Shown here piece after piece: positions 1,240 through 63,037 of a stretch of 64,000 nucleotides of DNA. The position numbers were made by a program, and so were the translations under genes. Position 1 is the stretch's first letter, and each line of letters opens with the position of its first letter. The DNA lies in assembly GCA_965197585.1 (NCBI GenBank), contig OZ240215.1, positions 2,304,001-2,368,000 on the forward strand, in the 5' to 3' direction. The DNA is from Dehalococcoidia bacterium. Its GTDB lineage: Bacteria; Chloroflexota; Dehalococcoidia; Plut-88900. Under the pieces are notes generated by a model. The model ran no database searches. It saw only the letters and a program-made list of their open reading frames with translations, and was not told the DNA's origin.

Positions 1240-1269
1240 ATTGACAATTATACATCCCCTCCCCACTTC

Positions 1270-1294
1270 CGTAGGTACGACCGGCCGGTCGCCT
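1270..1294. repeat. GTAG-type REP-like palindrome
   Basis: cGTAGgtaCGACCGGCCGGTCGcc; a related cGTAGgggcg start occurs at ~20967. Confidence 0.55.
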
Positions 1295-1321
1295 TCCTCG
1301 ATAGGAGTGACACCAACCCCC

Positions 1322-1351
1322 TTGACCTTAGATGAACATTCGTGCTAATCT
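1322..1351 (+). promoter_or_regulatory. sigma70-like promoter with overlapping LexA-like box (element copy A)
   Basis: TTGACC(1322)-18 bp-TAATCT with extended TG; GAAC-ATTC-GTGC at 1334-1345 resembles GAAC-N4-GTTC. Confidence 0.6.
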
Positions 1352-1354
1352 CCT

Positions 1355-2030
1355 CACCGTTCGAACACCAACCTAACTATCTCAAGGAGGAACCAAAAAC
1401 CCAGGGAAGCCCACCCGACCCATCCGAGGACTCAACGTCCAAGCCCATCCCAATGGCCCTCCCGCGGCCTGCGGCTCAAGCAAACGCCGCCATCTCCTCA
1501 TCCCATCGGGTCCCGTGCCCCTTCCCTGACCCCCAGGCGATGGAAAGACACTCTGGTTCGTTAAGTTCCATGTGAAGCTCCTTACGGAGAAGCCGCTCCT
1601 TCGAGCGGAATAGCGGTCGGATAGGCCCGGCGCCGAGGCCCTCTCGGTACACCGTCCGCTTAATCAAGCCGGGAGCCGGTGGTCTACGCGCTCCGGGTCG
1701 CACCGGCAAACTTGAACACACTACGCCTGCAGAGGCCCGGCATCGGACGCTGGACGGACCTCCTTGCCGCCCTATAGCGGTGCAGCCAACCCTCGGAGTC
1801 GGGCTCGGACCTGCTGGCCCTGAAGGTCCCTGCCCATGTCCAGCGTATGCAGGGCCACAGGCCGCAGCAGCGGCAGGCGGCTTTAGTCCGCCGTAGTCGG
1901 GCCGGCGCCCTCACCCCGGGGCGTCGGAACACCCGAAGCACATGAACGGGGACAGCGTCCAGCCAGTGTCTTCCATCGCCAAACCCTTCCAAATAAGAAC
2001 CAAAATCCAACCCACAACCGAATAAAGGCC
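1355..2030 (+). ncRNA. Putative large structured ncRNA, copy A (family unknown)
   Basis: Conserved blocks shared with 46540-47115; long-range stem 1536-1552/1965-1980; many internal hairpins; no credible conserved ORF with a start codon. Confidence 0.55.
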
Positions 2031-2067
2031 CTTGCCTGCCCCTGACGTGCCGGACTAGTACATTATG

Positions 2068-2136
2068 TTGCCTAATTGCCTGGAAAATGATACTATGTTC
2101 GTGCCTGAAGTGAAGGTTTTCTACGCTTCACTTCAG
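2068..2136 (+). promoter_or_regulatory. Promoter plus leader hairpin upstream of the amidotransferase-gyrA operon
   Basis: TTGCCT-17 bp-TACTAT with extended TG; 11-bp stem CTGAAGTGAAG/CTTCACTTCAG at ~2105-2136. Confidence 0.55.
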
Positions 2137-2172
2137 TTACCTTGACCCGTCCGTCAAGACCTCGTTTCCCAC

Positions 2173-46101: not shown

Positions 46102-46420
46102 CGTCATTCCGGCCCCCGAGCCGGTAGAAGATGCTGCAAGCGGAACGTCCGCCTCGGGAGGATGCGCCTGTGGCGTGCGCCGAGGCGTGAATCCATCCTT
46201 GGGGTGGGGCCGTTCACCCTGTCGTAGATCCGCCGAGGCGGGAGCACCGTCGAAGGGCCGAGCGGGGGGCGGCCCACCACTGCAAATCCGTCGCGTCCCT
46301 AGAAAGCCACCCCACCCCTTTCTCCCCCGTCATTCCTGCGGAGGCAGGTCGCAGATGCGCCAAGGCGTGAACCCATCCCTCCTGAAGGCGCACCTCCCGC
46401 CGAGCCGGAATCCATCCCCT
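46102..46420. repeat. Nested cluster of palindromic repeats with 21-nt inserts
   Basis: GTCATTCC/GGAATCC and CCCTG/GTCGAAGGG units interrupted by TCGNAGATSCGCCRAGGCGKG. Confidence 0.8.
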
Positions 46421-46504
46421 CTCCCGTAGCCCTCACCTCCGCGAAAACTCACCTTCCGCCTCTACCGCATCAAGCCATGTCCAGCCAAATGTGACACGAA
46501 CCCC

Positions 46505-46534
46505 TTGACCAAAGCAAAACACATGTACTATATT
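46505..46534 (+). promoter_or_regulatory. sigma70-like promoter with overlapping LexA-like box (element copy B)
   Basis: TTGACC-18 bp-TATATT; AAAC-ACAT-GTAC at 46517-46528, same offset as in copy A. Confidence 0.6.
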
Positions 46535-46539
46535 CACTC

Positions 46540-47115
46540 CCGACTGGCCAGTTACCCACCCCAAGGCCAAGGAGGAACCACAACCCAGGGGGAACACCAT
46601 CCCCGGCCCCCGAGGACTCAACGTCCCAGCCCATCCCAAAGAGCGGCGTTAGCCGCTCCCAGGCTCAAGCGAAAGCCGCCATCTCCTCACCTAAAGGCCC
46701 CGGCTCACCCCCCCCCAACCATCAGGCGATGGAAGGTCCATCGACTCTACGCGGCATGTAGGCTTACGAGACCAGCCTACTCGACGCACCACTCACCCGG
46801 CGCGTTCGAGTCAACGCTATGCGCATAGCACGCGAATATACGGAGCCCTCCATTGCAGGGCTAGGCTAGGGGCCTTCGTGCCCCCGGCATACTCCACCGC
46901 CGTTCCCTTCGGAGGTCCCCACCCAGCGGCGGAAGTGAGTAGGCGCTCCCATCCCTCCGAATGGTCGAGCGCAGGCTTGTGGACGAGACACCCCGCCTCT
47001 CTCGCCCGCCTCAGCAAAGACACGTGGGGTAATCGCAGGCTGGTCTCCCGCCCCTGCCCAAGAGTCTCGGACCTTCCATCGCCTACCCCCCAATAACCAA
47101 ACCAAACCCGGAACC
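46540..47115 (+). ncRNA. Putative large structured ncRNA, copy B
   Basis: Blocks shared with copy A; stems 46724-46748/47061-47084 and 46768-46778/47037-47047. Confidence 0.55.
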
Positions 47116-47179
47116 CCAATCGAAGATCCGCCTCAGGAGGACTTAATAACCCCAAGCCCGTAGCGGTGACGTAGGCAAA

Positions 47180-47893
47180 CTACCTGAACTCCCTTGCCCA
47201 CAGTGCCTGCAGGATGGGCACCTCGTCCAGTTTATCCCCCAAGTCTTCCCAAATTATCCCCGTTGGCCTGTGAAATCCTCCTTCACACGCCACCAACTCC
47301 TCCGGCGTTCCTATGTAGTCCAGGGAAATATCGTGAGATGTCATGGGCAGCTCTTCCGACAAAAGCTGCACAGGATGAACGGTAGTTACTATCGGCGTAC
47401 TCTTAGATATCAGGCCTAGGGTCAAGGCAACAGCGTATTCAAGGTCCGAATACCCGCCGCCCTTGCCCAGCCGAGCCCCTTTCCTGTTCACCGCCACCGA
47501 CCCGCAGACAATCAGGTCAATGCGCTGCATTTCATCAGGGTGCACGAGCCTGCCTAGCTGTGCAGCGCCCTTGATGCTGCTGGCCAACCGGTAGTCGCTG
47601 ATACGGGCCGGGTCCAGTTCAACGAAGCACTTCTCCTGCGTGAGCCGGGGCACGGCCATGTAGACGGTCTTACCCTGCTCCAGGGCGAGCCTTCTCAGGG
47701 GCCTCTGAGGCAGATCGGGGTTCGACTTAATCACCCGGGCGTTCTTCCATATCTCCAACTCGGCAAGCTGAAGATGTGCCCGACCCGAGCCCGTGAAGTT
47801 TGGTATCCGACCCACGGCTCCCGGAAACGCGGCGACACCCGCATCCCTCATCGACTGCCACACATCCTTCCGTATTTCGTCCTTGTCTCTCAT
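47180..47893 (-). CDS. 5-formyltetrahydrofolate cyclo-ligase
   Basis: RIPNF, NPDLPQ, AVPRL, GSVAV..GARLGKGGGYSDLEY, HD. Confidence 0.88.
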   Translation of the reverse strand: MRDKDEIRKDVWQSMRDAGVAAFPGAVGRIPNFTGSGRAHLQLAELEIWKNARVIKSNPDLPQRPLRRLALEQGKTVYMAVPRLTQEKCFVELDPARISDYRLASSIKGAAQLGRLVHPDEMQRIDLIVCGSVAVNRKGARLGKGGGYSDLEYAVALTLGLISKSTPIVTTVHPVQLLSEELPMTSHDISLDYIGTPEELVACEGGFHRPTGIIWEDLGDKLDEVPILQALWAREFR

Positions 47894-61816: not shown

Positions 61817-63037
61817 TTGGCCACCGACGTAATAATGCCCCAGATGGGCTTCGATATGGAGGAGGGCACCGTCGTCCGCTGGCTCAAGGCGGAAGGCGAT
61901 AACGTCGACAGGGGCGAACCCATCGTCGAGATAGAGACCGACAAGGCTACCGTAGAAGTCGAGTCCTTCGCCTCCGGTCTCCTGCGTCGTATCGTAGTCA
62001 CGGAAGGCATCACCGTACCCGTCGGCCAGATCATTGGCATCATCGCCTCCGCCGACGAAGACCTCCCCCAAATCCCCTCTCCCTCGATGGGAGAGGGTCA
62101 GGGTGAGGGTGACTCTCCCACCCCCTCCACCGCAGCCACTCCTGCATCAGTTATTTCTAAGCCTACCCCCACTCCCCCCACCCCCTCCAAGGGCGACCGC
62201 ATTCTCGTATCCCCCTTGGCAAAACGCATAGCCGAGGAGAAGGGCGTAGACCTTTCCACAGTCACGGGCACGGGGCCCAAAGGCAGAATCACCAAAGAGG
62301 ACGTCCTCGCCGCCGCCGAGGCAGACCAGGTCCCGGCCCCCGCACCGTCAGCAGTGGCAGATGTCACCGAGCTCTCCAGGATGCGCCAGACCATCGCCCG
62401 GCGCATGACCCAGAGCAAGCAGGAGATGCCCCACTTCTACGTCACCGCCAGCATAGACATGACCCGCGCCATGGCCCTCCGCGAGGAGCTCAACGAGCTC
62501 TGGACAGGCGAGGCCCGCCTCACCGTCAACGACCTTATCATCAAGGCCTCCGCCCTTGCCCTCGCCAAGTTCCCTGCCTTCAACTCCCACTACGCTGACG
62601 GCAAGATAAAGCACAACCCTTCTCTCAACATCGGCGTCGCCATAGCGCTGGAAGACGGCCTCATCGCCCCCGCCATCCTCGACTGCGGAGGCAGGAGCCT
62701 GAAAGATATCTCGGCGGCCAGCCGGGACCTTAGCACCCGGGCCCGAAATGGAGTCCTCAAGCCCCAGGAGTACACCGAGGCCACCATAGCCATAAGCAAC
62801 CTCGGAATGTTCCAGATCGATAGTTTCATCGCCATCATCAACCCCAAGCAGAGCGCCAGCATCGCCGTGGGAAGCGTGACGAAACAACCCGTCGTCCGGG
62901 ACGGCCAGATCACCATCGCCGACATCATGCAGTGCACCATCTCCGCCGACCACCGCGTCGTCAACGGCGCAGAGGCCGCCCAGTTCGTCAACGAGATCAA
63001 GGCCTACCTGGAAAAACCCTCCAGCCTCCTCCTTTAG
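61817..63037 (+). CDS. pdhC: Dihydrolipoamide acetyltransferase (E2)
   Basis: TTG start after AGGAGG; ETDKA lipoyl site, GTGPKGRI, DHRVVNG. Confidence 0.93.
   Translation: MATDVIMPQMGFDMEEGTVVRWLKAEGDNVDRGEPIVEIETDKATVEVESFASGLLRRIVVTEGITVPVGQIIGIIASADEDLPQIPSPSMGEGQGEGDSPTPSTAATPASVISKPTPTPPTPSKGDRILVSPLAKRIAEEKGVDLSTVTGTGPKGRITKEDVLAAAEADQVPAPAPSAVADVTELSRMRQTIARRMTQSKQEMPHFYVTASIDMTRAMALREELNELWTGEARLTVNDLIIKASALALAKFPAFNSHYADGKIKHNPSLNIGVAIALEDGLIAPAILDCGGRSLKDISAASRDLSTRARNGVLKPQEYTEATIAISNLGMFQIDSFIAIINPKQSASIAVGSVTKQPVVRDGQITIADIMQCTISADHRVVNGAEAAQFVNEIKAYLEKPSSLLL
62074..62112. repeat. CCCTCTCCC repeat located in frame inside the pdhC linker
   Basis: cccctctccctcgatgggagagggtcagggtgagggtga, encoding PSPSMGEGQGEG. 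Confidence 0.85.

Follow-up and report, generated by a model that had tools for sequence, protein, structure and literature searches.

Two long intergenic regions in the genome of a Dehalococcoidia bacterium, 45 kb apart, share a series of sequence blocks in the same order, and the question they raise is whether they specify a new kind of large RNA or belong to something else. Both lie in the window, the 64,000-nucleotide stretch of contig OZ240215.1 that was analysed; its own genome (3.43 Mb, one contig) is called G000 here, and other G-numbers denote congeneric genomes. The original prediction saw in the two regions, copies A and B, a two-copy element with its own promoter and a candidate new family of large structured RNA. 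We found that this observation is real but was misread, and that the two copies are members of a high-copy transposon family. With a probability that we put at roughly 75%, the family is a genus-restricted set of non-autonomous DNA transposons, 0.74–0.88 kb long and resembling oversized MITEs (miniature transposable elements with inverted repeats).

Each of the shared blocks is present where it had been placed, with the following starts in copy A and copy B.

1307 (A) and 46491 (B): GTGACAC..TTGACC
1383 (A) and 46568 (B): CAAGGAGGAACCA
1424 (A) and 46610 (B): CCGAGGACTCAACGTCC..AGCCCATCCCAA
1473 (A) and 46662 (B): GGCTCAAGC..GCCGCCATCTCCTCA
Further blocks common to A and B: CAGGCGATGGAA, later TTCCATCGCC, and an A/C-rich tail

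Identity between A and B is high in the first ~250 nt and at background level within the GC-rich middle part, whose 5′ border GGCGATGGAAG and 3′ border CTTCCATCGCC are mutually complementary. The genes flanking the two copies are unrelated, as had been noted, and a conserved open reading frame (ORF) is indeed absent from both. A protein-coding 5′ module was considered and rejected, as the conserved blocks lie in different frames in the two copies and the Shine–Dalgarno (SD)-like AAGGAGG is not followed by a start codon.

The family is much larger than two copies. BLAST of the genome with the 5′ part gave 41 matches from 82 candidates, and an iterated nhmmer profile gave 79, of which 57 span the whole ~240-nt module with scores >150. 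The weaker profile matches comprise a second family of ~14 copies that shares the promoter only, promoter-only matches before real genes, and truncated copies. By simple arithmetic (roughly 57 copies of ~0.75 kb in 3.43 Mb) the element makes up ~1% of the genome. It is present in all eight other species of the genus, with 40–81 first-look candidates per genome, and BLASTN did not find it in three further genera of the family or in 29 further families of the class. When 185,579 species genomes were scanned with an exact pattern, at least 80 loci came back, those listed lying in eight records titled 'MAG: Dehalococcoidia bacterium'. As judged from these searches, the family is apparently restricted to one Dehalococcoidia genus known from metagenome-assembled genomes.

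We regard the family as a transposable element because it has terminal inverted repeats, 5-bp duplications and empty orthologous sites. The termini read 5′-TG…CA-3′, and the inverted repeats are imperfect and about 27–30 bp long; by eye, TGATCCCGTTCACATAGAGGGGTGACAT… pairs with …GTGTCACTAATCTACCGAACGAGTACA at ~24 of 32 positions. G000 holds 16 left boxes and 25 right boxes; 13 copies have both, 739–1,103 bp apart. The 5-nt flanks, compared by eye, are identical in seven of these 13 complete copies (TCAGC, TGCTT, CTCCC, CCCCC, GAGGC, GCATT and TACCC) and match at four of five positions in three more, where a chance 5-mer match is estimated for ~0.1% of pairs. Among the relatives' 80 listed loci, ten copies have both ends, with a duplication matching at five of five positions in four and at four of five in three, some of these complete copies being orthologues of copies in G000.

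The site of copy A (locus A) is filled in G000, G005 and G002, which align over 3 kb, both flanking genes included, at 95–96% identity. It is empty in G001 and G003, where only ~115 nt of unrelated spacer lie between the two flanking genes. Homology to these empty sites stops near window position 1275 and resumes right after …CTAGTACA, at 2062/2063, so that the rearranged stretch is ~1276–2062 with the right end of copy A at 2062; the extent first proposed, 1307–2030, was too short. TTATG and a −35-like TTGCCT are kept in the element-free sites, and this promoter is therefore the host's and not the element's. At a second site, upstream of uvrA, the profile finds the full 5′ module in G000, G001 and G008, a weak or partial one in G004 and G006, and nothing in G003. 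No transposase was found inside the 57 copies by blastx and no called gene overlaps them, the sole case being a secondary insertion sequence (IS) that interrupts copy c660651p. Likewise, copies up to 1,103 bp long contain no ORF of the rve (retroviral-integrase-type) family, and every one of the 25 right boxes is part of an element. The outcomes that the original prediction had named as refuting it are largely what was seen: the element is transposable, although it is not the eroded end of any named IS.

From left to right, an element (0.74–0.88 kb; complete copies 739–1,103 bp) is built as follows.

Outer left repeat: TGATCCCGTTCACATAGAGGG, in the best-kept copies
Inward promoter: GTGACA(C/T), 7 nt, TTGAC(C/A/T), a 17–18-nt spacer and a TA(C/T)TAT-type −10
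Conserved 5′ module: to the right of the promoter
Closing helix: seen in 53 of 57 copies, 50 of which were used for clustering
Variable domain: ~330–530 nt, six classes of 6–12 members plus two singletons
A/C-rich tail: ~50 nt, ending in CACAA
Small hairpin units TCCGCCTCAGGAGGA: zero to three after the A/C-rich tail
Right terminus: CTGAAKAAAA, then the right repeat GTGTCACTAATCTACCGAACGAGTACA

Each of the 25 right repeats in the genome follows an element start on its own strand, at a distance of 690–850 nt (24 full copies and one truncated). The element is non-coding, carries a sigma-70-type promoter of its own and has no match among known RNA families, as had been stated. At the level of single copies the promoter reading differs: a consensus scan accepts that of copy B, and by the same scan copy A has no plus-strand promoter.

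The elements stand in a fixed relation to host promoters. The right end is followed by five variable nucleotides, the duplicated target, and then by TTGAC: positions +6 to +10 after the right end are T in 23, T in 21, G in 21, A in 17 and C in 17 of the 25 copies. At this fixed position, 17 of 25 copies match TTGACA at four or more of six positions, compared with 3.3% of 1,499 scored control positions taken 40–150 nt upstream of called genes. The same match is seen in 17 of 21 cases among the relatives' listed loci. A −10-like hexamer (at least four of six) follows 16–18 nt further on in 18 of 25, a figure that stands without a control. Element and downstream gene point the same way in 45 of 57 copies and in all 23 copies that have a right box by a looser pattern; the gene usually starts 40–150 nt past the element, and no copy overlaps a called gene. 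These genes are functionally unrelated. Judged by eye from their N-termini, they include UvrA, LeuRS, GlnRS, peptide deformylase, RibF, transporters and oxidoreductases, together with eight paralogues of one amidohydrolase-like family. A function-specific riboswitch or leader was rejected, the downstream genes being unrelated except for those eight paralogues.

Selection alone could favour intergenic and co-oriented copies, but it cannot produce the fixed 5-bp phase, and for this reason we infer targeted integration. Integration may be aimed at promoters by recognition of the −35 sequence or of something bound there. Transcription from the element would then enter the host promoter region, and each insertion would add an upstream promoter and a long leader. 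A stronger version of this proposal is possible, and we put it forward tentatively: the transposon would read promoters, its machinery recognising the −35 hexamer or the bound sigma factor or RNA polymerase and inserting, always in one orientation and 5 bp upstream of it, a cassette made of a promoter and a long, foldable leader, with the closing helix and the slow evolution of copy A reflecting a selected role in gene control. A different rve-type IS (~423–438 aa, minus strand) lies at G000 659340–660640 inside c660651p, between GTGACATCACC and the −35. Its position just upstream of a −35 is of the kind that the element itself occupies in host promoters.

The element would be moved in trans by a DDE transposase of the rve type. 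There are 29 rve ORFs in the genome, and two resident rve IS families have TGTA…TACA ends and 4–5-bp duplications. The first, IS481-like and 1.07 kb long, has ~20 near-identical copies (99+%; for example 3178067–3179136), and its 320-aa product matches rve_3, rve and rve_2. Its ends read TGTAAG…CCACA (TGTAAGTGTTAGGTAATTCGTTGACAG…CCACA) with an ATTCC duplication, and it is itself target-specific, lying invariably within the hairpin repeat GTCATTCC…GGAATC. The second, a 380-aa rve IS, has inverted repeats of 50 nt (TGTACAG…TATACA) and duplicates 4–5 bp. Like these IS481- and IS3-type (rve DDE) sequences, the element has TG(T)…(A)CA termini, beginning TG(T)A, short duplications and an inner GT(A/G)ACA motif. 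A trans-acting rve transposase would be the natural candidate for the mover. The hairpin repeat GTCATTCC…GGAATC also occurs inside class-0 variable domains, and one IS481-like copy lies directly downstream of element c2681812m.

The two copies in the window follow this plan, with degenerate ends. Copy A, on the plus strand together with its host flank, is laid out as follows.

1276–1306, plus: degenerate left border, in which the palindromic repeat GACCGGCCGGTC replaces the outer left repeat TGATCCCGTTCACATAGAGGG
1307–1356, plus: inner left end GTGACAC and inward promoter, with −35 TTGACC at 1322–1327, TG at 1343–1344 and a weak −10 TAATCT at 1346–1351, as assigned from the sequence and the family consensus
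1357–1535, plus: 5′ module, with AAGGAGG, the invariant GAGGACTCAACG..AGCCCATCCCAA, a variable hairpin and GCCATCTCCTCA
1536–1551, plus: 5′ strand of the closing helix, GGCGATGGAAAGACAC
1552–1965, plus: variable GC-rich domain, class 5, which has six members in the genome
1966–1980, plus: 3′ strand of the closing helix, GTGTCTTCCATCGCC
1981–2062, plus: A/C-rich tail and degenerate right end, …CCGGACTAGTACA, diverged from GTGTCACTAATCTACCGAACGAGTACA
2063–2096, plus: host flank, TTATG, −35 TTGCCT at 2068–2073 and −10 TACTAT at 2091–2096, a host promoter that serves the gene at 2173–2856

Copy B, on the same strand, reads as follows.

46491–46539, plus: inner left end GTGACAC and inward promoter
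46505–46534, plus: promoter TTGACC-18-TATATT, ten of 12 matches
46540–46724, plus: 5′ module
46725–47073, plus: closing helix, GGCGATGGAAGGTCC at 46725–46739 and GGACCTTCCATCGCC at 47059–47073, around a class-2 domain
47074–47149, plus: A/C-rich tail, one TCCGCCTCAGGAGGA hairpin unit, then CTTAATAA

Past 47149 the right repeat of copy B is degenerate, and the next gene (47180–47893) is on the opposite strand. Around many copies (in the window, for example, 46200–46490 and 1276–1306) the intergenic DNA is pieced together from at least four further families of short repeats: a hairpin CCCCCTCTCCCTT…AAGGGAGAGGGGG, a hairpin GATATATCAGCCATGTTGC…GCAACATGGCTGATATATC, a …GTCGAAGGGTCTCAAGAACGGAATGG… unit and the GACCGGCCGGTC palindrome.

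The second repeat family of ~14 copies, none of them in the window, has the same promoter and a different 5′ part (…CAGGCCCGAC…GTCGGCCCTAATCAAGGAAAGG…AAAGGAGTCCCATGAGTCGCAC…CCGAGCGGTATGGGACCGCCCGG…), which carries an SD and an ATG start with a conserved Arg-rich frame (MSRTSL.RPRR.RAV…). Examples in G000 are at 62860, 505610, 684518, 1445638, 1577663, 1590859, 2280200, 3022084, 3035253, 3062928 and 3386770; those at 684518 and 1590859 continue into the same GCGATGGAAGG helix strand. A solo left end, TGATCCCGTTCACATAGAGGGGTGACATCACCCCC, at G000 3404962–3405100 (plus strand) is fused directly to a promoter, TTGCGA-17-TAAAAT. On its 3′ side, upstream of two genes, stands an inverted repeat, TTAGCACTC-N9-GAGTGCTAA, which we take to be CIRCE-like, the genes presumably being groES/groEL-like.

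A number of points weigh against a transposon. No autonomous partner was found in G000, where no element-type end pair encloses a transposase apart from the interrupted c660651p, nor among the relatives' 80 listed loci; element-type ends beside rve ORFs were also not found, except for the IS in that same copy. The ends of the two resident IS families agree with those of the element at only ~17 of 27 and 17 of 23 positions (63–74%, by eye), and unlike these IS the element has no rve ORF. The insertion at locus A is unclean, ~100 nt of ancestral spacer being gone from G000. Neither copy A nor copy B has the outer left repeat, and the right ends of both are degenerate; because of this their transposition is inferred from family membership and the empty sites. 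The gene calls come from a home-made, crude codon-usage caller (2,681 genes). Some features also point to constraint, which would not be expected of an element that is purely selfish and decaying. The closing helix, 15–17 bp long, is paired (by eye) in all 50 listed copies across two sequence types and across domain classes. Between G000 and its orthologues in G005 and G002, copy A is ~2% diverged, compared with 10–15% at flanking third codon positions, and one pair, 1550/1967, is compensatory, A-U here and G-C in the G005 and G002 orthologues. Finally, pieces of family members occur in RNA-library contigs (four libraries, three studies), which by their nature demonstrate neither transcription nor the ends, strand or level of a transcript.

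These last points make the case for the alternative closest to the original prediction, a family of large structured non-coding RNA (~650–750 nt) that would be the product under selection, carried on a mobile unit and acting as a cis leader or in trans, for example through C-rich anti-SD-like stretches. We consider this unlikely, although part of the earlier claim holds, as both copies fold better than their shuffles (z-scores of −3.1 for copy A with 20 shuffles and −5.1 for copy B with 100). The element has its own promoter, and a pattern scan found no intrinsic terminator on the plus strand of either copy; the one terminator-like site is on the minus strand, inside the 5′ module of copy A. 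A variable hairpin after AGCCCATCCCAA in the 5′ module takes at least four different self-complementary stems (by eye). The two closing-helix types differ on both strands (GACGCC/GGCGTC versus GGTCC/GGACC); by eye, the common variants are sense-strand G.U wobbles and A.C mismatches are singletons only. The closing helix and the compensatory pair at 1550/1967 would favour a hairpin at the level of either RNA or DNA. The transcribed cassette may thus have a function under selection, with the closing helix at its centre.

Much of the remaining evidence speaks against an RNA under structural selection, quite apart from the transposon hallmarks. There is no gathering-level Rfam match in the whole window, and at E ≤ 10 the matches to both copies are noise, the best being Chloroflexi-1 at 22 bits against a cutoff of 80, on the minus strand; no intron or ribozyme match (group II domain V and the like) is seen even at that threshold. 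The 5′ module shows hardly any covariation: two of its 29 predicted pairs changed on both sides, with a covariation term of −0.21 kcal/mol. The GGAC-TCAAC-GTCC hairpin, named in the original prediction, does not hold up as a conserved pairing, since it is broken in 17 of 31 aligned copies, ACGT being kept in 14, ACGC (an A.C mismatch) found in 16 and ACAC in one. In the variable domains, with the structure taken from one reference sequence per class and the other members scored at its Watson–Crick pairs, G.U is seen in 81 columns at predicted pairs, A.C in 98 and other mismatches in 155, and compensatory changes in 39. By cells, the counts are 167, 208 and 409 (21%, 27% and 52%). These substitutions look neutral, like unconstrained change with a transition bias. 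At uvrA, the variable domain is swapped for unrelated classes and the 5′ module diverges by 19–27% between species, compared with 25–30% at third codon positions. The class-2 domain, moreover, is a decayed gene fragment.

The low divergence of copy A, which is 5–7 times more conserved than synonymous sites, can be read in another way. At locus A it extends to the host promoter and leader, which show no difference in 110 positions among three species. It may therefore stem from recent recombination and not from RNA constraint, strong constraint on the region being the other reading. In comparisons of window 1267–2172 with L032 and L033, the whole intergenic region is far less diverged than the third codon positions of both flanking genes (10–15%). 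The RNA-library pieces lie at ~1404–1875, three of the four libraries being labelled sponge metagenome, and no contig covers 1232–1395 or 1888–1969. Contig depth is highest where the element is most conserved and most repeated, and copy number inflates depth.

The foldable interior, at least part of which is decayed phage DNA, is more probably a mosaic of sequence from phages and repeats than an RNA gene whose structure is strongly selected. The element's promoter type (GTGACAC-N7-TTGAC-N17/18-TAnTATnnT) precedes two operons, at ~1.118–1.120 and 2.872–2.874 Mb, each with a 132-aa ORF (ORF1), a small ORF and a 430–464-aa terL-like ORF. The latter matches three PHROG terminase-large-subunit families (E = 7e-6, 0.002 and 0.009, weak to moderate). 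Frameshifted translated matches of 31–59% identity to TerL residues ~197–377 were obtained with class 2, the class-6 singleton and two unclassified copies; class 3 matches TerL-like proteins weakly (E 0.25–0.48). For one class-2 copy, 414 nt align with terL (66% identity), the alignment beginning at the 5′ helix strand and stopping exactly at the 3′ one, and copy B shares only two short nucleotide pieces with the terL locus. The terL-like gene itself carries ACGATGGAAG…CTTCCATCGT, an internal complementarity of 10 bp or more that corresponds to the closing helix. These alignments identify the class-2 domain, that of copy B, as a frameshifted, decayed internal fragment of a phage-like terminase gene. 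Classes 0, 1, 4 and 5 (the last being that of copy A) have no similarity to terL or to the genome's own proteins at E ≤ 1e-3.

What the domain classes have in common is limited to their ends and short mosaic pieces. Elements of differing domain class occupy the uvrA site in five species, a pattern compatible with repeated insertion into one promoter as well as with exchange among copies. An invertible segment was rejected, with no minus-strand match of at least 40 nt between domains. Derivation of the 5′ module from ORF1 of the terminase operons, plausible by eye, was also rejected, blastn aligning the promoter part only (m1 positions 47–127).

It could be argued from these phage-like traits that the element is a reduced Mu-like phage or phage satellite that kept its ends, its promoter and scraps of packaging genes and is mobilised by a phage-type transposase. 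TG…CA ends with a 5-bp duplication are hallmarks of Mu and are present here. The element-type promoter drives both terminase-like operons and the capsid-like cluster near 2.865–2.874 Mb, and the TerL matches given above, including the alignment that runs from helix strand to helix strand, point the same way. We nevertheless think such an origin quite improbable. No rve ORF is listed near the phage-like clusters, and no element-type end stands beside them, with only 10–14-nt matches in 2.84–2.90 Mb; neither the TerL-like protein nor ORF1 has a Pfam match, and classes 0, 1, 4 and 5 lack terL similarity. A linked MuA-type (rve) transposase and a phage body between the ends, as in Mu-like or mini-Mu elements, were likewise not found, the shared traits being the ends and the duplication. 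The phage- or gene-transfer-agent-like clusters lie at G000 1117829–1119956 and 2865300–2874405, both on the minus strand, with a capsid-like ORF near 2865336 (by eye).

The element can be compared with known mobile elements. Correia/CREE, RUP and MITEAba12 are bacterial MITEs or non-autonomous IS derivatives, and MITEs are usually shorter than about 0.5 kb. With complete copies of 739–1,103 bp, the present element is 3–8 times longer than a typical one. Unlike MITEs, it also has a conserved inward promoter, an interior of ~650 nt and a swappable domain, it inserts in a single orientation at a fixed distance from −35 hexamers, and a cognate IS with matching ends was not found. Literature on such elements includes PMC6382973, PMC5896051 and PMC3184786. 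Like MITEs, the element has terminal inverted repeats, short duplications, no transposase and many intergenic copies, and it may affect the expression of neighbouring genes.

Certain autonomous 1.5-kb IS also insert in an orientation-specific manner at a constant 5 bp from a short DNA site to which a protein binds. Their targets are recombination sites and they encode a transposase, whereas the present element has none and its neighbouring site is a promoter −35. A further parallel is an analogy only: Ty3, a eukaryotic retroelement with long terminal repeats, integrates at yeast RNA polymerase III promoters through targeting to TFIIIB. The element likewise appears to integrate precisely relative to a DNA site of the transcription-initiation machinery, but it is a DNA transposon of bacteria. 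As a non-autonomous DNA transposon the element belongs to an ordinary kind; it is unusual in its size, its cargo and, above all, its apparent promoter targeting.

There is a practical lesson as well: in uncultured lineages, abundant repeats that carry a promoter can be mistaken for new RNA families when only one window is read. A shallow literature search found no bacterial mobile element that homes to promoters, though such a case may have been published. Should −35 hexamers truly be the target of insertion, the present family would be a rare case of a promoter-homing mobile element in bacteria, able to rewire how many genes are expressed at one stroke. If the tentative promoter-reading proposal is also true, the same upstream module would have been placed before dozens of unrelated genes of this organism, housekeeping genes included.

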